A stretch of DNA of 50,054 nucleotides, taken from IMG/VR virus record IMGVR_UViG_3300020358_000009, positions 1-50,054 of that record; one strand, given 5' to 3'. The notes beneath the pieces are model-generated. The model saw only the letters and a list, made by a program, of their open reading frames with translations, searched no databases and had not been told where the DNA came from. Shown here piece by piece: positions 22,602-33,410 of this stretch. Position numbers and translations under genes: made by a program. Source of the stretch: a virus. Taxonomy: Duplodnaviria > Caudoviricetes. Positions within the stretch are counted from its first letter, which is position 1; each line of letters begins with the position of its first letter.

Positions 22602-23375
22602 ATGCCAGCAGAAATTAATTATACCTTAACATTTAGTGAATCAGTAAAAGGATGGCCTTCTTTTTATAGTTACATGCCTGATATGATATTAGGAATGAAT
22701 CAATATTTATATACTTTTAAAGGTGGTAGTTTATATCGACATAATACCAATGAGATAAGAAATAGATATTACGGAATAGACTATGATTCTACAATTACAG
22801 GTGTATTTAATCAAGAACCAACAACTGTTAAAGTGTTTAAAACCATTGAGCTTGAAAGCGATGATTCTTGGGATTGTTCAATAACAACAGATTTAGGGAG
22901 TGGTTTTATGGATGAAAACTATTTTGAACAAAAAGAAGGGGCTTGGTTCGCTTTTATTAGAAGAATAGGTGGTAGTCAAGACTTTGCTCAAAGATCAACA
23001 CAGGGGATTGGTGGTTTTGCATCAACAACAGGGGCATCACCAGGTACAATTGAAATAGTATTTAATGTAATAATAAGTAATATTATTAATTACGGAGATA
23101 CTGTTTTTTATAAAGACCTTTTTGGCACAATTAAAAAAATAGGCCCAATAACAGATATATCTTCTGATAGAAAAGAAATTTTAATAGACGCATCAGACCT
23201 TACCCCAATTGGACAAGCTGTACCTGTGGGTTCATATATTTTTACAACTAAAGATAGTGTTGCCGAATCTTATGGAGCAACAGGATATTACATGGAGTTT
23301 AAATTAACAAATAACAGCAAGACGCCTGTTGAACTATTTACAATAGATTCAGATGTCTTTAAAAGTTTTCCTTAG
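22602..23375 (+). CDS. muzzle/stabilization protein C-terminal-like polypeptide
   Basis: TLTFSESVKGWPSFYSY..D...LYTFKGG.LY.HN...KVFKTIELES...KEG.WFAFI...GYYM...ELF motifs. Confidence 0.65.
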   Translation: MPAEINYTLTFSESVKGWPSFYSYMPDMILGMNQYLYTFKGGSLYRHNTNEIRNRYYGIDYDSTITGVFNQEPTTVKVFKTIELESDDSWDCSITTDLGSGFMDENYFEQKEGAWFAFIRRIGGSQDFAQRSTQGIGGFASTTGASPGTIEIVFNVIISNIINYGDTVFYKDLFGTIKKIGPITDISSDRKEILIDASDLTPIGQAVPVGSYIFTTKDSVAESYGATGYYMEFKLTNNSKTPVELFTIDSDVFKSFP

Positions 23376-23381
23376 ATTTTG

Positions 23382-23389
23382 TATCTTTG
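23382..23389 (+). promoter_or_regulatory. -7 box TATCTTTG
   Basis: TAnnTTTG just upstream of ATG 23395. Confidence 0.55.
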
Positions 23390-23394
23390 CATTA

Positions 23395-23805
23395 ATGAAA
23401 TTTAATGTTAGAAAATTAAATCCCCTAGACTACGAGTCTATTTTAATTAAATGGTGGAAAGACTGGAGATGGACACCACCTCCAAAAGATTTTTTACCTG
23501 ACAATGGAGAAGGTGGATTTATTGTGTATGATAATGATATTCCTGTATGTGCAGGATATATTTACATAACTAACTCTAAAGTAGGATGGTGTGATTGGAT
23601 AATATCTAATTTCGACTATAAAGACAAAGTAAAAAGAAAAGAAGCATTAATAGAGCTTGTAAAAATATTAACGCATACTTTAAAACTGTCAGACTGTAAA
23701 TACGCATATGCTTTAATAAAGTCTGATTCTTTGATAGAACATTACAAAATAAATGGATATATTGAAGGAGACAGTTATAATAAAGAAATGATAAAAGGAT
23801 TATAA
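23395..23805 (+). CDS. GNAT-fold-like protein preceding the ejection proteins
   Basis: PVCAGYIY.TNSKVGWCDWIISN; position analogous to T7 gp13. Confidence 0.55.
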   Translation: MKFNVRKLNPLDYESILIKWWKDWRWTPPPKDFLPDNGEGGFIVYDNDIPVCAGYIYITNSKVGWCDWIISNFDYKDKVKRKEALIELVKILTHTLKLSDCKYAYALIKSDSLIEHYKINGYIEGDSYNKEMIKGL

Positions 23806-23806
23806 T

Positions 23807-24808
23807 ATGGCAGCATTTACAACAATAGCAGCGGCAACAGTAGCAATAGGTGGTAGTGCTGCAAAAGGTTTTTTAGCATCAGATGCGTCTTCTGATGCAG
23901 CAAGAGCAGCTGGGAGGTTTAGAGTACAGCAAGAGGAATTAGAAAAAGAATCTGTCGCAAGATTAGAAGCTAATTACTATGATGCTGTTAGAGCTACAAC
24001 TGATGTTTACGACAAACAACTACAATTAGCAAACCAACAAGGTGCTCAAATCTTAGAGGCTGCTCAAGAAGGAGACCAAAGAGGTGTAGGCGCAACTGCA
24101 GGTAAAGTAAAGCAAGTAATGGACGCAACTTCAGGCGCTATTGCTGATAAGTATGCTGATCAAAAAATAGAAATAGACCTGAAGCGTGCCCAGGCTTCTG
24201 AAACAGATGCTGCAGAAATAGCGAAGTTATTTGATGATAGAGCAGCAGCAGCAGGTGTAAAAGCAGATGCCTTAACCCAACAAGCAGACCAATTATCAGG
24301 ACAAGCTACAGGAGCATTTATAGATGCAGGAGTAAGTGCTTTAAGCGCAGGAGTTACTGCGTTTGGAGGGTTAGGTGGTATGAAAAATAAAATGGGTAAA
24401 GCCGCAGATGCATTATCTAAATCAACAGGAATGGACAGGGCAGCAGCTTTAAAACAAATTCAAGGTCTTGGACTAGATAGAAAAGGGTTAAATGGTATAA
24501 TAGATAGTGGAGTATTACCTAGCGTAAGCTCTGTTACTGCTCCTGTAACAAATTCGGTAACAAAACCGATTGTACCTGATGTAACAACCCCTACATCGCC
24601 TGCTGATGTAAAAACAATGTCAATAGGAGGAGCGCAATTTGATATGAATTCTTTTTTAGACAGTCCTGAAGTACAGGCCGCAATTAAAAAAAGAAAGCAG
24701 GAAGAAGAAACTGCTGTTAGTGGTTTATTCAGTGCTATTGATGGAACAGTATTGAGAATTAATGATATTATGGGTAATATATTTAATCCTGAACCAGATT
24801 ACAAATAA
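23807..24808 (+). CDS. internal virion/ejection protein (small, Ala/Gly-rich)
   Basis: Hydrophobic Ala/Gly N-terminus and Gln/Ala coils; position analogous to T7 gp14. Confidence 0.6.
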   Translation: MAAFTTIAAATVAIGGSAAKGFLASDASSDAARAAGRFRVQQEELEKESVARLEANYYDAVRATTDVYDKQLQLANQQGAQILEAAQEGDQRGVGATAGKVKQVMDATSGAIADKYADQKIEIDLKRAQASETDAAEIAKLFDDRAAAAGVKADALTQQADQLSGQATGAFIDAGVSALSAGVTAFGGLGGMKNKMGKAADALSKSTGMDRAAALKQIQGLGLDRKGLNGIIDSGVLPSVSSVTAPVTNSVTKPIVPDVTTPTSPADVKTMSIGGAQFDMNSFLDSPEVQAAIKKRKQEEETAVSGLFSAIDGTVLRINDIMGNIFNPEPDYK

Positions 24809-24815
24809 TTAAGAT

Positions 24816-26783
24816 ATGGGCAACGCATTAGACGCAGCAAAGTTTTCGATACTACAAGGCAATACAGGGGTAGGTACTAAAAAGGAATTACTAGCAGGTA
24901 TTGATAGAGGGATAGAAGGTGTTAAAACTTGGAAAAGTAACATCGACCAACAACGCCTTGACTTAAAGAAAAACACAGCTGAAAAATATAGACAAGCTGA
25001 GTTAAAAACAATGGAAAATCTTCCTAGTGATAAAACTAGTAGAGATTTAGCAATAAAAGCATTAGCAAATTATAAAGACCGATTATATGGAAACATGGGG
25101 TTGGTTCAATCAGGTAACATAAAACCTGAAGATAATTTAATATTTCAAGAAAACGGAAAACAATCTTTTGATATACTTGCTCAGCAAATAAATGGTTACG
25201 CCAAAGAAAAAGAAAACTACATAAAAAGACTTAAGGGATACTACGAATTAAATGAAGATGGAACTAAAAAAACAGGTGCAGATGGTTTACCAATTTATGT
25301 TCCCCCATCTTCAGGTGGTGTAGACCAATCACTTCAAGATTTACATGACAGAATGGGTAACCCTGATTTTACTGATATGACATTTGGAGAAAATGGAATG
25401 GGTAGAATAACTTTTTATCAAACAAAAATTGACGAAACAACTAAGACAAGAGTTTTAGATTTAGATGCTGAGGGAAATCCTCAGCCTTATGATGGCATTA
25501 AGGATATGAGCGTTTTAGCTTTTAATAACAAAAGAAATCAAACTGCAGAAAAGGTAGACTTAGCACAAGAAACTAAAGCAGCTATTGGTAAAGACAGTCC
25601 ATTGGGACAAATTTTTGAGAAAATGGATAATTTTGGTAAAATGCTCGGAGTTGTTACTGATGACATGAGAAATAACCCACAATTAAACAGATTGCTTAAA
25701 GATGCGGTATCTGCGGCTGCTGCAACTACTGACAAACAGGCTAGCATATTAAGTGACAATGGCCCTGAATCAGAAAGGTCAATAACATTAAATGAGTTTG
25801 AATCTCAAGAGTTAGAGAAACAAGGCATAAATTTAGATGAAAAAATAGATTATACGTATATTGATACAGACCCTAAAAGTGAGACCTATGGTGAAGAGTT
25901 AACAGGGCAAAAGAGTAAGTACATAAAAATGGTTATGGCTAAGAATAATCAAATTGTTCCTGTAATAAGTGCTAGTGATAAGTTAGCTGCTGAAAGAATT
26001 GCTGGAAGTAGTTTTTATTCAGGACTAAGAAGAGACATTACAGATGGAGGAACTAAAAAGAGTGAGTTCCAAGCTCGAGCAAAAAGTGCAGCTACAATTA
26101 AAAAAGAGGGAGATGATGAAGATTATCAGTTTACAGTAAAACTTATTGACCAAGCCTCTACAGGTGATGTGGAGAGTTTACAGGCTTTAGTAAATGAAAG
26201 CGATATTGTAGAAAAATACACAATAGATACCATAGATGGTAAACAGGTATTAAACTTTTATACTTTCTCTGGAGACAAGCTTGCCGACATTTTAATTGAT
26301 GGTGAGGGTAAAGCTGTAGGTAAACAAATTGCATCTCAACTTAAAAAACAAGCTGAAAAATATATTAATAAGACAACTCTTAAAAATGAAGAGGCTAAAG
26401 GAACAGATGCTGAATTTAATTCTAGGTCAAGAGAGTATACTAATTTAGATGATGTAGTTTTTGGGGTAAATAATCAAGGAGTAACGACAACAACAAGTGA
26501 TTTATTTGCAGATGCAGGAAAAAGTTCAGGTAAAATTAAAGCTGCTTTTGACAGAACAATAGCTGAAATGGCTAGACTATATGGTTTTCCTGAAGGCTTC
26601 CTAACAGTAGAAATAGATGATACGGATTTCAATGATAGAATGACTATAAGGGATGCTAATGGAAAGGAAATCGATCAATTTGAAGAAGATGCTTCGAATG
26701 GTGCAAACATAAAGAATGCATTAGACAAATACATGAAAACAGTTAAGTCAGGCGAGGTAAAATTAAATAAAGATTTCGGTTAA
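24816..26783 (+). CDS. internal virion/ejection protein (medium)
   Basis: Position and size; no catalytic motif recognised. Confidence 0.55.
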   Translation: MGNALDAAKFSILQGNTGVGTKKELLAGIDRGIEGVKTWKSNIDQQRLDLKKNTAEKYRQAELKTMENLPSDKTSRDLAIKALANYKDRLYGNMGLVQSGNIKPEDNLIFQENGKQSFDILAQQINGYAKEKENYIKRLKGYYELNEDGTKKTGADGLPIYVPPSSGGVDQSLQDLHDRMGNPDFTDMTFGENGMGRITFYQTKIDETTKTRVLDLDAEGNPQPYDGIKDMSVLAFNNKRNQTAEKVDLAQETKAAIGKDSPLGQIFEKMDNFGKMLGVVTDDMRNNPQLNRLLKDAVSAAAATTDKQASILSDNGPESERSITLNEFESQELEKQGINLDEKIDYTYIDTDPKSETYGEELTGQKSKYIKMVMAKNNQIVPVISASDKLAAERIAGSSFYSGLRRDITDGGTKKSEFQARAKSAATIKKEGDDEDYQFTVKLIDQASTGDVESLQALVNESDIVEKYTIDTIDGKQVLNFYTFSGDKLADILIDGEGKAVGKQIASQLKKQAEKYINKTTLKNEEAKGTDAEFNSRSREYTNLDDVVFGVNNQGVTTTTSDLFADAGKSSGKIKAAFDRTIAEMARLYGFPEGFLTVEIDDTDFNDRMTIRDANGKEIDQFEEDASNGANIKNALDKYMKTVKSGEVKLNKDFG

Positions 26784-26792
26784 AAAAAAAAG

Positions 26793-29700
26793 ATGGACGA
26801 AGAGATTTTAAAAAACATATGGAACGCATTATCTAGTGACAAAAAAACAGAAAGTGATTTTGAAACTTGGAAGTCAAACTTTTCAGGAAACTCTGAAGTT
26901 CAAGACAATGTTCATGTATATCTTACTCAAAAAGGATATACTAAAAATGACCTTGAAACTTGGAGAACTAATCTGGGAATAAAAAAAAAAGACAATTCCG
27001 ATTTCACTTCAGAAGAGGTCGTTACGGAATCCACTACAGATGTGGAAACAAATCCGTCCTCCTTGGACTCTTCTTCAACAACAACAAGCGTTGATGTACC
27101 TTTAATAGAAGAGACTTTAATTGACTTTCCTAATGCGCCAGAAAGAAAAGGTGTGTTAGAAAATGAAGATGGTTCTGTATCTACACATAAAATGAAAACC
27201 GAAACCTTAGATGGTAAGAATTGGGTTTCATTCCCTACAATATTTCAAAATGAGAACGGAGAGTTTGTTGACATGTCTGAGCAAGCAGAATCAGATTGGA
27301 AATCTGTTTACGAAGAAGCTAAAAAAAGAGGAGAGGTTATTGATTTTTTAGAAGATAAAGATTCAGCTATTAAATATGGAGAAGGAGCTTGGAAGCAAAA
27401 ATACAATGCCAATAAAAAAAATAACTTACTTGAAGAATCAGGATATTTAGCATATGCAAATGACCCTGAAAGAAAGAAGTTTATGTCAATACTTGATAAC
27501 GAAGAATTAAGTGCCAATCTACCTGATTACGTTAAAAAAGACTATGAAAAACAATACGGATTTGTTAACCCTGAAACAGGGGAAACAGAGTTTAAAAAAG
27601 AATCCGAAATAAACCCAAGTTTATTAGAAGCTATAAAAGAACATGATTCCATGACTGGAGAAGTAAAAGCTCCTAACTATGTTGACGTTGATATTGATGA
27701 TGACGATTACAGTAAGCTAGGAAATAATGTAAAAAATATTCTTAGAAAGCAAGAGATAGATGTAGAAGATTATTTAAAATGGCAAAAGAAAAACACACGA
27801 AATGAAACAAAAGTTTATAAGTGGATGAAAACCCTTTTGCCAAATGAGGAAGGTGATCAATATTTCGAAGAAAAAAATGCCTATGAAAAAGTACAATCTT
27901 ATAAAACAGCTCAGCTAAATCAAATAACTAAACGATTGGAAAAAATCCAATCTACTATGAATTTGACCTCAGACAGGAATGAATTGAGAGAGCTTGAGAA
28001 ACAAGCAGATGAAGTTAGAAAAGAGTTTTATGCTAAAGTACAATCAGTTACTGAGACTATAAATTACTTTCCTAAATTTAAAGAATATACAGAAGATGCT
28101 GACTTAAGAAGAAGAAAAGCAATGTATAAGGCTGCTCAAGAAGGTGGTTTGTCTGAGGGAGGTCAAGCAATGGTTGAGTTGGCTGCTGTAACAGGTAATG
28201 GTCTTGTAGGATTTGCTACAGATTTTTTTGGTGGAATACCTGGTTTTTTTGACCAAAGAATTGCTACTCTAGGTGGAGAAAATAAGTTTGATGGTAAAGG
28301 AGTATTAAAAGGTCTTGAAGAAATGTTTACAGACTCTGCAGAAAGCTTAGAGGGAGAAACAGGGGCTGTACAGAGACAGGCGTTTATAGAGGGTAAGCCT
28401 GTTTTTCAAGGAGGAAATCGATATATTGTTGATGGTAACGGAACTGTATATGACCAAAACACCAACATAAGAATGGATGGCATCATTCCAAGTGAAACGA
28501 TTAAGAAAATTGTAAGCTTATCCAAGGATGTAACAGAAACTGAAGTTAATTGGACAGGAGGAGCAGTACTTCAAGGCGGTGTAAGTACACTTGTAAATTT
28601 ATTTGCATTAATAAGAACAGGTGGTAAAGTAAAAGGCGCTCTTGGATTAAAGGGAAAAAAAGCAGGATCAATAGGAATGGGTATTTCCTCATTTGTTTCT
28701 AGTGTTGCAGGTAATGTAGAGGATGTACGCTCTCAATTAGTGGCTTCAGGAATGAGTGAAAAGGAGGCGTTAGATATTTCTGTTAATGCAGGTCAAGCAA
28801 TAGCCACTCTTGATGGTATTTTCTCAGGACTAGCAGGAGGAAACGAAAAACTTCTTGTTGGTTTTCAAGGAATTAAAGACCAAATTAAAAACTTAGCAGT
28901 AAAAGAAGGTAAAAAGTTTACAGTAAAACAACTTGTAGATAAGGGTAAAGGCTTAGTAAAAGAAAACGCTAAGGAGCTTTTTATTGAAGAGCTTCCAGTT
29001 TATTTTTCAGAGAAAGGCATAAATCACTTAGTAAATAGACATATTGGAAATGATGTTTTAAATGATAAAATAACAAGAGCAGGGATTACAGAAACAGTAG
29101 TTATGACAGTAGGAGCTACCTCAACTTTAGGTGGTAAGAAATTATTGTCAGGAAATAAGAGAGCGAATTTAGTAAGATTAGCTGCAGCAAATGTACAAAA
29201 CTTACAAGCTACACTAGATGTTTTGGTTAAAGAAGGTTCTTTAACTCAAATAGAAGCTTCAAATGCTTACACAGAAATATACAATGCACAATCAGCTGAG
29301 TTAAAAACTCAAGGTACTGTTAAGATGACTGAAAACATTGAGCCTGCTGCTGATTTATTAACAGAAAGACAAAACTTAATAAATAAAAAACAAGGTTTAG
29401 AAGGCCCTGGCAAAGTTGATATTGATAAACAAATAGCAGCTGTTGACCAACAGTTAGACGCCCTGTATGAAAAAGATAAGATAGAAGTTCAAGAACAATT
29501 AAAAAAAGAAAACGATGCCATTCAAGAGCCAAGCACAGAGAAGCAAGTGTTACAAGATGATGCAGCAAGCAAAGAAGATGGGGCAGAAACCGAAGTGGGA
29601 CTGCAACAAGTGGGAAAAGGAGACGTTGAGTCAGACACTACCCAAGAGGGTGACACCGAAACGGAAACAGAAACCGACCAAGCTATCGACACGACTACGC

Positions 29701-32700
29701 AGACAGATACTGAACAGTTAACAGACACCACTTCTGAAACAGAAGTGATGAGTGTGAACAAGGAAAGAGTAGACTCTATTGTTGATGGTATAGTTGAGAA
29801 AACAAAAAGCCGAAACGTAGGAAAAAGCACTAACCCACAAAAAGTTGCAGACAACGCAATTGAATATATAAAAGGTTCTAAGTTATTTGAACAGTCAAAT
29901 GATATAGAAAGAGAAAATATTATTAGAGATGTTAGCAAACAACTAGGCGTAGAAATTAAAGCTCCTACTGCCAAGAAATTATTAGGCATAAAAAGAATAG
30001 GAAAGCCTAAGACTATTAAAGTAAAAAGTGACTATGCTGCAATGAAGAAAGATCTTCAGAAAGAAGCTAAGGTTGCTAGAGATGCTAAAAACGATGTAAA
30101 CAGCAGAAGAAAGGGTTTACAGAATGCTATAGATTTAGTTGTTAAAGCAGGTAACATTAGTACTAAGAAAGCAAACTCATTGCTTAAAAAAGTTTCTAAT
30201 GTAAATCTTTATAACGCTAAAAAGGTTCAGGACGTAATAGACTTTACTACAAAAGCCATGAATGATGCTGAGTATTCTAAAAAGTTAGATAAGGCAAAGT
30301 CAATTCAGAAGGCTATTAAGAAAAAACTAAAAGGCAAAGAAGCAGGTTTATCAGATTCTGCTAAAAAGTTTAGTGAAGTTAATCCGAGTAATGTAGCTGA
30401 TATCGATGTGTATTTAGAAAAGGCTACTGAAGTAAGCAAGGGATTACAACCAACTAGAAAACCATCTAAGGGGAAACTTAAAGTAAGTAAACCTTTTGAT
30501 ATTAAAAAAATGGACGAGTACTCCAAGAAAGAAGTAGAGTTAGAAGCAGAAAGAAACTATGAGCTTGCAAAAGAATCTTTTCAAGAACTTACAGGTCTAG
30601 AGCCAGGAGATTTAACTCTTGACCAAATGAAAGATATGATGTATGAGATAGATGGAGTTAAAACAGACTCTGAATCTGACAATAAAACATTAAAAAAGAA
30701 GGAAGCTGTAATTGATAAAGCTGTAAAAAACGCATTTAAGAATACTAAAATAAACATAAAAGGTGCTATAGAGTCAGGAGATATAAAGGTTACTAAAGAA
30801 CAAAAGACTTTGATTGACAAATTCCTAAATATGGATTTAGATTTAATGACTACTAAGCAAAAAATGGAGGCACTAGATTCAATCATAAACTTCGAACTTA
30901 ATCAATCAACAGGTGGAATGGATGCTGTGTTTAGTCAGCAGGTTGGTGCTGTTAAGATGAATAAAGCAAAAAATCAAAAAATTGAAACACCTAAGAATCC
31001 AAAACTTTTTGGGCTAGGAAGTGTGTGGAATAAATATATATCAACACTACCTAATGTATTTGAACTTGCTTTTAAATCACAAAAGAAAGCTAGGATTATA
31101 ATGGATGCCATAGGTTTAAATGGGATAATAAATGGTAGTGCAAAAGCTCAAACCGAAGGTGCTAATACAGAAAAAGATTATGCGAATGCTTTTTCAAAAA
31201 AGAAAATGCAAGATGGTATATACTTTGACGAAGCTAATGATACTGAAAGAGCGATACTAGCAGATGTAAGGAGATTTACTCCAGGGACAGAGGCTGAACA
31301 GCAAAAAGAATTTGATGATAGTAAGAATCTTATTAAGGAAACTTACGAAAGACTTATGGAGTCAGGGGACAAGTTAAAAGTTAAAAAAGGTGAAATTGTT
31401 AAAGCTCAATATGACAAACTTTTAAAAGACTCTAACTCTATAGCAGATGTTGAAAGTAAAGTAGATCCTGTAAATTTAGAAGGAGTAAAATATGTTACAG
31501 AGATTTGGTCTAAGAAGTATAATGATTTAGCAAATGTTTCCTTAAACATATACAATAGAAATTTAGGAAAAGACGTTAATTATACACCAAGAAACATAAG
31601 AAATGTAGCTCAAGTAGAGCCTGAAGTAGATATTACTCAACCTGTATTTAATCCAGAAGGGTTACAGAGAAAGAATGCTTACGATAAAAAAACAGGTGTT
31701 TTAAAAGAAGCAACTAAACCTTCAAGCTTAGGGAAGGGGAAAGTTTTAAATTTAAGTTTTGATTCACAAAACATGAGCAACTACAAAGCTGCTTTAACTG
31801 ATATTTATACAGCATCTTCAATACAACAAGTAAAAGGTGCAAGAGATTCAAAAGCTTTTAATGAAGTTTTTACAGACCCTGAATCAAGAGATATAATAAA
31901 CAAAAGAATTAATGGATACGTTGATACTAAGAGAGGTAAAAATTACATTGATGGAAAAAGTAAAAGAGCTTTAAATCGTTTGAACAAATTAGCTACGCTA
32001 GGTGTGGCTAGAGTTTTAGGTGGGCCTACTCAGATGCTAAAGCAAATTGTTCCAATATTCAATACAGGTGTAAATGCAGGTGTTGTAAATACTTTAGAAG
32101 GAGCAAAGCTAATGTTTAACCCTGATGTTAGAAAAGCAATAAATGAATCAGGACTTCCAATTGCAAATAGAGGTATATCATCTCAAACAGATATTGAGAA
32201 TGCAGATAGTAGGATTGCAAAAAAAGCAAACACATTTGAAGGTAAGGCTATTGATATAGCTGATTCTGTAAATAAAAAGACATTAGAGATTTTCTTAGTT
32301 AATCCTGATGTTGCTACTGCTAAAGCTTCTTTTATTGCTTACTATTTGAACGCAATGAATAAGAAAGGCGTTAAAACAAGCGAGGTAGATTTTACAAAAC
32401 CTCTTGATAAAGAAGCTGCACAATTTGCACAGCAACAAGTAGATAGACAGCAAAACACATCTGACCAAGATTTGCAAGGAGATTTATTTACTAGTCAAAA
32501 ATTTGGCCCACAATTAGTTCGTAAAACATTATTTCCCTTTGCAAACTTCTTGTTAAATCAAAAAACAAGAATGTATTCTGACATTAATACCTTGTATAAT
32601 AACCCTACAGCTGAACCTGGTGCAAAGAAAAGAGCAATACAATCGTTAGTAGGATTAGGTCTTGAGACAACGGTGTTTAATTCAATTGGATTAGGAATTA

Positions 32701-33410
32701 CTCAGGCCATGGCTGCCGCTGCTAGAGCTTTATCAGGAGAGGATGAAGAACTAGGGTTAGAAGCGGATATGAAGCGTGAAGAAAGAGATGAAAAAGATTT
32801 TATGAACAGGGTTAAAGGAAGAACAGGAAATATGATTGCTGATATTGTTTCTCCTATACCTGTGCTTAATGACCAACTTTTAGATAAGATTAATGGAGTT
32901 ATGGGTATATTTCAAGATGATGAAAAAGACCCTTGGAAGTTTTTTTCCAAGACAGATAAAGGAATAAATGAAAGACTAGGTGTTTTAGGAATAGGTATTA
33001 AAAAGGGAGCAATACTTACAGACATGATTAAAACAATTGTTACAGGTGAAAAAACCACAGAGTATATGGGTAAGAAGAGTACGAAAAAGATTGAACCTGA
33101 TAAACTTGAAACTTTAAAGGGAATTGCAATGGCATATACTCTTCACTTGATAGGTGTTCCTATTTTAAACTCAACTGAAGTTGGTTACATTTCTGAAAGA
33201 GCTTATAAAAATATAGGTAAAATGAAAGAGAAAGAGCCTGAAACAATAAAGCCTATTACAATCAAGCAAATGGAAAAGATAAATCCAAAAAAGGCTGAAG
33301 CAATGAAACAAGAGGTAGCAAGAAAAAAGAGAATTCAAAAAGCTGACCCTAGATTAAATTTAGCTAAAAAAAGAAAAGAAGAAATATTGAGAAGAGTAGA
33401 CAGAAAGTAA
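26793..33410 (+). CDS. large internal virion/ejection protein (2205 aa)
   Basis: Last late gene; mostly helical with Gly-rich membrane-like segments. Confidence 0.7.
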   Translation: MDEEILKNIWNALSSDKKTESDFETWKSNFSGNSEVQDNVHVYLTQKGYTKNDLETWRTNLGIKKKDNSDFTSEEVVTESTTDVETNPSSLDSSSTTTSVDVPLIEETLIDFPNAPERKGVLENEDGSVSTHKMKTETLDGKNWVSFPTIFQNENGEFVDMSEQAESDWKSVYEEAKKRGEVIDFLEDKDSAIKYGEGAWKQKYNANKKNNLLEESGYLAYANDPERKKFMSILDNEELSANLPDYVKKDYEKQYGFVNPETGETEFKKESEINPSLLEAIKEHDSMTGEVKAPNYVDVDIDDDDYSKLGNNVKNILRKQEIDVEDYLKWQKKNTRNETKVYKWMKTLLPNEEGDQYFEEKNAYEKVQSYKTAQLNQITKRLEKIQSTMNLTSDRNELRELEKQADEVRKEFYAKVQSVTETINYFPKFKEYTEDADLRRRKAMYKAAQEGGLSEGGQAMVELAAVTGNGLVGFATDFFGGIPGFFDQRIATLGGENKFDGKGVLKGLEEMFTDSAESLEGETGAVQRQAFIEGKPVFQGGNRYIVDGNGTVYDQNTNIRMDGIIPSETIKKIVSLSKDVTETEVNWTGGAVLQGGVSTLVNLFALIRTGGKVKGALGLKGKKAGSIGMGISSFVSSVAGNVEDVRSQLVASGMSEKEALDISVNAGQAIATLDGIFSGLAGGNEKLLVGFQGIKDQIKNLAVKEGKKFTVKQLVDKGKGLVKENAKELFIEELPVYFSEKGINHLVNRHIGNDVLNDKITRAGITETVVMTVGATSTLGGKKLLSGNKRANLVRLAAANVQNLQATLDVLVKEGSLTQIEASNAYTEIYNAQSAELKTQGTVKMTENIEPAADLLTERQNLINKKQGLEGPGKVDIDKQIAAVDQQLDALYEKDKIEVQEQLKKENDAIQEPSTEKQVLQDDAASKEDGAETEVGLQQVGKGDVESDTTQEGDTETETETDQAIDTTTQTDTEQLTDTTSETEVMSVNKERVDSIVDGIVEKTKSRNVGKSTNPQKVADNAIEYIKGSKLFEQSNDIERENIIRDVSKQLGVEIKAPTAKKLLGIKRIGKPKTIKVKSDYAAMKKDLQKEAKVARDAKNDVNSRRKGLQNAIDLVVKAGNISTKKANSLLKKVSNVNLYNAKKVQDVIDFTTKAMNDAEYSKKLDKAKSIQKAIKKKLKGKEAGLSDSAKKFSEVNPSNVADIDVYLEKATEVSKGLQPTRKPSKGKLKVSKPFDIKKMDEYSKKEVELEAERNYELAKESFQELTGLEPGDLTLDQMKDMMYEIDGVKTDSESDNKTLKKKEAVIDKAVKNAFKNTKINIKGAIESGDIKVTKEQKTLIDKFLNMDLDLMTTKQKMEALDSIINFELNQSTGGMDAVFSQQVGAVKMNKAKNQKIETPKNPKLFGLGSVWNKYISTLPNVFELAFKSQKKARIIMDAIGLNGIINGSAKAQTEGANTEKDYANAFSKKKMQDGIYFDEANDTERAILADVRRFTPGTEAEQQKEFDDSKNLIKETYERLMESGDKLKVKKGEIVKAQYDKLLKDSNSIADVESKVDPVNLEGVKYVTEIWSKKYNDLANVSLNIYNRNLGKDVNYTPRNIRNVAQVEPEVDITQPVFNPEGLQRKNAYDKKTGVLKEATKPSSLGKGKVLNLSFDSQNMSNYKAALTDIYTASSIQQVKGARDSKAFNEVFTDPESRDIINKRINGYVDTKRGKNYIDGKSKRALNRLNKLATLGVARVLGGPTQMLKQIVPIFNTGVNAGVVNTLEGAKLMFNPDVRKAINESGLPIANRGISSQTDIENADSRIAKKANTFEGKAIDIADSVNKKTLEIFLVNPDVATAKASFIAYYLNAMNKKGVKTSEVDFTKPLDKEAAQFAQQQVDRQQNTSDQDLQGDLFTSQKFGPQLVRKTLFPFANFLLNQKTRMYSDINTLYNNPTAEPGAKKRAIQSLVGLGLETTVFNSIGLGITQAMAAAARALSGEDEELGLEADMKREERDEKDFMNRVKGRTGNMIADIVSPIPVLNDQLLDKINGVMGIFQDDEKDPWKFFSKTDKGINERLGVLGIGIKKGAILTDMIKTIVTGEKTTEYMGKKSTKKIEPDKLETLKGIAMAYTLHLIGVPILNSTEVGYISERAYKNIGKMKEKEPETIKPITIKQMEKINPKKAEAMKQEVARKKRIQKADPRLNLAKKRKEEILRRVDRK
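26981..27030 (+). other. candidate -1 frameshift signal (A10 run plus downstream stem)
   Basis: ATA AAA AAA AAA GAC followed by the ATTCCG...CGGAAT stem; -1 frame stays open to TGA 27092-27094. Confidence 0.5.
29515..29721 (+). CDS. nested +1-frame small basic protein (MPFKSQAQR family-like)
   Basis: A-rich start context with A at -3; sequence resembles stand-alone small phage proteins; local GC about 50%. Confidence 0.6.
   Translation: MPFKSQAQRSKCYKMMQQAKKMGQKPKWDCNKWEKETLSQTLPKRVTPKRKQKPTKLSTRLRRQILNS
29747..29760 (+). repeat. GATGAGTGTGAACA repeat, copy 1
   Basis: Exact 14-mer also at 41534, 46299 and inverted at 37999. Confidence 0.85.

Follow-up and report, generated by a model that had tools for sequence, protein, structure and literature searches.

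A conserved A10 run as a probable slip site for a second protein in the giant gene of Flavobacteria-type podophages

A run of ten adenines is conserved near the start of the 2205-aa giant gene of a marine Flavobacteria-type podophage and its relatives, and it is probably a transcriptional slip site that yields a second protein of 100 aa. The window, by which is meant the whole stretch of DNA analysed, is a 50-kb virus record (IMG/VR IMGVR_UViG_3300020358_000009; 50,054 nucleotides) that is 83% complete. According to the proposed mechanism, RNA polymerase would add one A at the run in a fraction of transcripts. Normal transcripts would then give the 2205-aa protein and A11 transcripts the 100-aa protein, which would consist of 66 shared N-terminal residues followed by a selected 34-residue tail read in the -1 frame. 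The slipping would be done by the host RNA polymerase, because no match to an RNA polymerase was found among the 25 window proteins scanned from this incomplete record. More tentatively, the shared domain may carry the short protein into the virion, and at ejection the tail may bind DNA or the outer membrane of the host.

The analysis points to a conserved, unannotated protein in widespread aquatic Bacteroidota phages. No description of this element was found in the literature outside subscription papers and supplements, and no prior description of polymerase slippage used by a tailed phage was found; the words 'frameshift' and 'slippage' do not occur in the accessible part of PMC8776804, nor does 'frameshift' in that of PMC5335546. 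The features on which the argument turns are the following.

23353..23805, plus strand: 150-aa gene (phrog_17252); relatives were collected through it, as an anchor that does not depend on the A run
23807..26783, plus strand: two genes upstream of the giant gene (333 and 655 aa; open reading frames) in the same module, the background for A-run counts in relatives
26793..33410, plus strand: giant gene (2205 aa; open reading frame), third and last in a three-gene module after the tail module
26793..26980, plus strand: N-terminal domain of about 63 aa with two imperfect repeats and a net charge of -4, shared by both predicted products
26981..26990, plus strand: candidate A10 slip site (ATA AAA AAA AAA G) after codon 63 of the giant gene, from the sequence and its relatives
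26990..27094, plus strand: -1 frame of 34 codons and TGA, which overlaps the giant protein's S/T/E linker; aromatic and basic, net charge +9
26995..27030, plus strand: weak predicted hairpin, ATTCCG (26995-27000) with CGGAAT (27025-27030), after a 4-nt spacer

Conservation of the A10 run

The local sequence reads GGA ATA AAA AAA AAA GAC, with the run at 26981-26990 exactly as an earlier, sequence-only reading of this DNA had claimed, and the run is one of three A or T runs of at least 9 in the 50-kb window. Eighty loci were collected through the anchor gene, which lies 3.4 kb upstream, and 22 of them were dropped since they end before the third gene; 20 loci found with the N-terminal domain and the window were added, and 58 were left after removal of identical 5' ends. 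A run of at least nine A lies within the first 360 nt of 56 of these 58 distinct 5' ends, and in all 56 it is exactly A10, although the loci are related and not independent (24 clusters at 70%) and, with the Lys codons (KKK or EKKN) held fixed, 39% of draws per locus produce an A10. All of the distinct giant genes derived from the anchor (46/46) combine A10 with 33-39 open codons in the -1 frame. The run occurs in two codon phases, GAA AAA AAA AAY (n=34) and NTA AAA AAA AAA G (n=22), and in none of the 56 is it broken by AAG, a pattern that had been named beforehand as speaking against a slip site.

Moreover, a metagenome search with the tail DNA alone, blind to the run, returned an in-frame A10 in 28/28 contigs (26 distinct), and the contigs of five other sequencing runs across the site also have A10. 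A pattern search for runs of nine or more A gave mostly chance matches: 13/121 passed the element filter, 12 of these with in-frame A10 and one (L210) with an in-frame A9 variant. That A9, one in-frame A11 and five deposited out-of-frame A9 runs are the exceptions to A10. Of three RNA runs, one gave a single spanning contig, which has A10 at a depth of 4.85, contigs being a form of data that drops minor variants; the contigs of runs X18 and X19 do not reach across the site.

Long A runs are otherwise avoided in these genomes. In 277 kb of neighbouring coding DNA, 4 runs of at least 9 A were observed vs 52 expected from codon usage, a 13-fold depletion that holds in all three phases (observed/expected 0.04-0.18); for A8 the counts are 65 and 86. 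In-frame A_AAA_AAG is not depleted elsewhere (0.9 of expectation) and A_AAA_AAA stands at 0.64. Other Lys-rich motifs reach 9 A in 3/90 cases.

The N-terminal domains that precede the run are diverse, and those of the 56 A10 genes fall into 15 clusters at 50% identity and 4 by any BLAST link. To judge from this clustering, the domain is exchangeable between lineages. Run and tail persist although the domain before them has been exchanged among four or more unlinked sequence types, and P0026 and P0030 are near-identical giants with different N-terminal domains. Two homologues seen as protein only, P0028 and P0029, have a domain of the window type without the KKK or EKKN motif.

All 10 named phage records examined carry a run of A9-A11 at this site. 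It is an in-frame A10 in elemoE, phi38:1, Calle_2 and Gundel_1, an in-frame A11 in MW202828, and an out-of-frame A9 in phi46:3, phi18:3, phi13:2, phi19:3 and Panino as deposited (L107:15758, L110:10507, L111:12268, L112:13250 and L114:18750, minus strand). In those five deposited genomes, which the analysis flags, the A9 splits or truncates the annotated giant gene, leaving either a small and a large ORF or a late start. The four Cellulophaga genomes with A9 were presumably sequenced by 454. Since Panino is a Nanopore-only genome (PMC11590407) and metagenome relatives of phi46:3 have an in-frame A10 in 4/4, the five A9 runs are likely to be homopolymer under-calls; less probably they are real, and the full giant protein would then depend on obligatory slippage. 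In the five A9 genomes the -1 peptide matches the tail profile (E about 1e-3 among 24), and those of phi38:1, Calle_2, Gundel_1 and MW202828 gave no profile match (E 0.4-1.2), the MW202828 locus being the one with A11 in frame (L109:16468). In crAss001 and phi14:2, no such run was found in the first 600 nt of five cargo genes each.

The -1 frame and its predicted product

Read from 26990, the -1 frame gives the 34-residue peptide of the sequence-only reading and ends in TGA at 27092-27094, so that one extra A, or a -1 shift, leads to a product of 66 + 34 = 100 aa; both the peptide and the length of about 100 aa that had been claimed are thereby borne out. The frame is open for 30-39 codons in 51/56 A10 genes, in comparison with 5/255 that reach 30 codons after other runs of at least 7 A. 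When the 0-frame protein of the window was fixed and its codons were redrawn, the -1 frame was open for 30 codons in 1/1000 draws; over 53 sites with 1000 draws each, the frame was open in a mean of 3% (for the window, 0.1%), and 0.05% of draws contained the motif. The immediate -1 stops that had been expected of homologues if the idea were wrong are absent from 54/56 A10 genes. The other two, L094 (1689-1718) and L095, retain A10 with a -1 frame that closes after 7 codons, and three more frames close at 19-27 codons.

Of the R/F/Y/G residues of the peptide, whose conservation the same reading had proposed to check, two glycines are invariant in 51/51 distinct -1 frames, and strands 1 and 2 of the tail alignment show alternating aromatic columns. 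Differences at 0-frame positions 1/2/3 number 36/57/49 in the overlap (20 disjoint pairs) and 77/40/145 in the upstream domain (18 pairs), a shift of the substitutions in the overlap toward the -1 wobble position (chi-square 32.6, p 8e-8). Indels within the overlap preserve both frames. As these sequence comparisons indicate, the amino acids of the -1 frame are under selection, and its product is very probably functional.

The tail carries a net charge of +9 in the window; among relatives the charge ranges from +4 to +11, and acidic residues are nearly absent. AlphaFold predicts a three-strand meander (strands 8-14, 17-24 and 27-34; pLDDT 73.5, pTM 0.39), a model in which the sheet would be aromatic on one face and basic at its edges. 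No family match to the tail was found in Pfam, in PHROGs or by tblastn in the named phages, and Atlas matches were all <0.9; the best Foldseek E was 1.2 and the best VIA Z 3.3, which does not imply a new fold. A profile search of 1.84 billion proteins returned 23 matches, all of 76-127 aa and all with the tail C-terminal behind an N-terminal domain; no stand-alone tail occurs among them. Of those looked up, 19/20 form single-member clusters. These fused database proteins could stem from assembly slips, from transcripts or from rare genomes, and they are no sign of expression.

As to function, we would tentatively suggest that the short protein enters the virion with the giant protein through the shared domain and that its tail binds the host outer membrane or DNA at ejection. 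A role in the infected cell is about as likely. The product would then be a cationic membrane-active peptide (lysis or superinfection exclusion) or a chaperone like gpG/gpGT, in keeping with a tail of net charge +4 to +11 that is almost devoid of acidic residues and with the absence of gpG/gpGT from the final particle (PMC5009743); such a role sits less easily with a tail that is in every case joined to the giant's N-terminal domain. This alternative concerns function alone and is compatible with the slippage mechanism. A more far-reaching reading, which we regard as doubtful, is that Flavobacteria podophages encode within the giant gene an unannotated fourth ejection protein, made by polymerase slippage or ribosomal frameshifting according to lineage, with the aromatic tail forming the outer-membrane part of the DNA-ejection channel. 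With regard to an outer-membrane beta-barrel subunit, an oligomeric amphipathic beta-sheet in the membrane, the observations are the alternating aromatic columns in strands 1/2 and the meander predicted for the monomer tail.

Mechanism of the shift and alternative explanations

The sequence-only reading had proposed ribosomal or transcriptional slippage to a short isoform, with a downstream stem as stimulator. The stem (ATTCCG/CGGAAT) and the G+C rise (26/60 at 27001-27060) are present as described, and both are unremarkable: the hairpin folds at -9.9 kcal/mol with a z of -1.9 over 37 nt (12/200 shuffles are as good) and -1.4 over 70 nt, and 8.8% of the 60-nt windows of the giant gene reach 26 G+C. 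The inner helix that is predicted is ACTTC/GAGGT instead of the proposed pairing CGATTTC/GAGGTCG. In the A10 class, pseudoknot-free 3' structure has a mean z of -0.26, with 1/53 sites below -2, and a 5' hairpin has a mean z of -0.24 over 53 sites. The 3' stem was consequently rejected as a stimulator at A10, being weak in the window and without conservation in relatives, and the hairpin at 26995..27030 is probably not one.

A different signal is found in a second class of relatives. In the two genes that lack A10, L104 and L105, G_GGA_AAG occupies the position of the run and precedes a YG..FFG tail; a stem lies 5 nt further on (z -2.05), and the N-terminal domain is 50% identical to that of the window. 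A pattern search for this class II element gave 122 loci, 50 of which (49 distinct) have all parts in one frame and a 0 frame open to the end of the locus; their identity as giant genes is presumed. The heptamer ends in AAG in 48/49 class II loci vs 21/72 of the other, chance matches, and the next 45 nt have a mean z of -2.07 (25/49 below -2) with about 6 unpaired bases before the hairpin. No run of 9 A lies nearby in any of the 49. The tail profile scores E<0.05 in 47/49, a result partly built in by the search pattern, which imposes part of the tail motif, and hence not independent. Class II tails (L104:1695-1800 and 49 distinct loci among L277-L398) end in YGI..GR(W/Y)FFG, and 30/49 have at least two cysteines. 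G_GGA_AAG is highly shift-prone in E. coli, where A_AAA_AAG is more so than A_AAA_AAA (PMC5009743, accessible part). Ribosomal -1 frameshifting at G_GGA_AAG with a hairpin is thus the likely route to a similar tail in some relatives, and the family appears, from sequence, to have two slip signals for one product. The contrast matters for the mechanism, since AAG and a stem accompany the family's ribosomal-type signal and are both missing from the A10 class.

The A10 site shows three features of transcriptional slippage: a run of at least nine A, nine being the usual threshold length (PMC1088944, PMC5009743, accessible parts); retention across two codon phases together with avoidance elsewhere; and a selected product in the alternative frame. 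As to a further feature, mRNA of mixed length from a uniform DNA template, the one spanning RNA contig has A10. Among the features of ribosomal -1 frameshifting, A_AAA_AAA is in frame, and an AAG second codon (0/56) and a conserved 3' structure are missing. The shift into the -1 frame that had been proposed is supported, and for the A10 class the evidence favours transcription; slippage at the window A10 would, in our judgement, be rather likely to occur at that level. The same 100-aa product could also be made by ribosomal -1 frameshifting on A_AAA_AAA, with a weak stimulator or none, which is distinctly unlikely. The slippery heptamer is available in both codon phases and its in-frame form is somewhat depleted elsewhere, but it needs 7-8 A and the run is 10 in both phases. 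Likewise, class II relatives use a ribosomal-type signal and a stimulator is dispensable for some phage frameshifts (PMC5009743), yet neither 3' nor 5' structure is conserved at A10 and SD-like 4-mers lie upstream of the run in just 16/56 genes.

Two further explanations are both very improbable. If the tract were phase-variable by replication slippage, a minority of A11 phage genomes would supply the short protein. Such slippage also depletes long runs in all phases, and it could account for the 23 database proteins that are already the fused short form and for the five named genomes deposited with an out-of-frame A9; however, the length is 10 in 56/56 genes and 28/28 metagenome assemblies as well as in the contigs of five runs, the fused proteins are nearly all single-member clusters, one A9 genome is Nanopore-only, metagenome relatives of the other four have in-frame A10 (4/4), and an A11 genome would lose the giant protein. 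Alternatively, there may be no second protein at all: a Lys-rich motif would produce the A10 incidentally, and linker codons or an RNA element would account for the -1 pattern. The frequency of A10 under fixed KKK/EKKN codons, the loss of the -1 frame in L094/L095 and the fact that no slipped transcript or protein was seen agree with this, whereas other Lys-rich motifs avoid 9 A, the substitution pattern moves toward the -1 wobble position, both frames survive the indels in the overlap, an unrelated second slip signal precedes a similar tail, and no RNA fold is conserved. The preferred explanation, polymerase slippage at A10, is directly testable, because phi38:1, Calle_2, Gundel_1 and elemoE are cultured and RNA-seq of phi38:1 infection is public (SRP066570).

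Genome setting and comparison with known systems

PHROG matches in the window comprise terminase, portal and virion-protein families; GroES and the crassvirus muzzle domain PF25729 are also present. The terminase shares 31-45% identity with its counterparts in cultured Flavobacteria podophages (Elemovirus, Pachyviridae, Pervagoviridae) and 68% with the one in MW202828. The window comes from a Flavobacteria-type podophage, with the relation to Pachyviridae and Pervagoviridae based on terminase and anchor-gene similarity, and the closest cultured phages are podoviruses (PMC8776804, PMC11590407). Its gene order, in which a module of three genes (333, 655 and 2205 aa) lies 3' of the tail genes, is that of Pachyviridae, Pervagoviridae and Elemovirus (PMC8776804, accessible part); the giants of the cultured members do not align with that of the window. 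A promoter and terminator scan gave no signal above shuffles. Two further A runs were observed near the start of the giant gene. A second A10, at 26782-26791, covers the stop codon of the 655-aa gene, and a single base separates it from the ATG of the giant; it is shared with L001 and L002, and L003-L006 are without it. In the A6 run at 26810-26815, an extra A occurs in a single RNA contig (run X18, depth 8.4) and may be an error.

No match to the 2205-aa protein was found in Pfam, PHROG or PDB sequences, and two of its homologues contain a large-polyvalent-protein domain (LPD23 or LPD38). In phi18:3, MS/MS is the basis for annotating the syntenic gene as virion structural. The giant is likely to be an internal virion (ejected) protein by analogy, on the grounds of synteny, this annotation and the cargo-protein model of crAss001 (PMC10172136). 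The term ejection protein is one that we infer from synteny and the crAss001 cargo model, because the phi18:3 and window giants do not align.

Several known systems share parts of this arrangement. Lambda makes gpG and gpGT from a g-t site that is also G_GGA_AAG, and the slippage run of Shigella spa13 is itself an A10. The class II heptamer is the g-t site of HCTV-5, and like gpG/gpGT the two predicted products would have a common N-terminal domain and belong to virion assembly (PMC5009743). Unlike gpG/gpGT, the gene belongs to a short-tailed phage module, its shifted product would be the shorter of the two, and there is no chaperone homology or family match. In Shigella spa13, spa33 and mxiA, slippage likewise takes place after about 58 codons in an injection-apparatus gene, but the slip there yields a longer, needed product (PMC5009743). 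Potyvirus P3N-PIPO provides the parallel of a short overlapping -1 frame within a long ORF, fused to the N-terminal part; it differs in being made by the viral polymerase of an RNA virus, with one A added at a GA6 site (PMC5009743).

The closest comparison is with dnaX tau/gamma, for which T. thermophilus slips on a 9-base run and E. coli uses ribosomal -1 frameshifting on A_AAA_AAG (PMC5009743, PMC1088944). As in dnaX, the 0 frame would give the full-length protein and the slip a shorter one, apparently by either mechanism according to lineage; in T. thermophilus, any change that is not a multiple of three gives the short form. Unlike dnaX, the gene described here belongs to a phage structural module, its site comes after about 3% of the gene, and the shift would add a conserved new tail of 30-40 aa. 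If, as it appears, two recoding mechanisms have been exchanged ahead of a single product, the family would offer a natural comparison for which dnaX is otherwise the basis.
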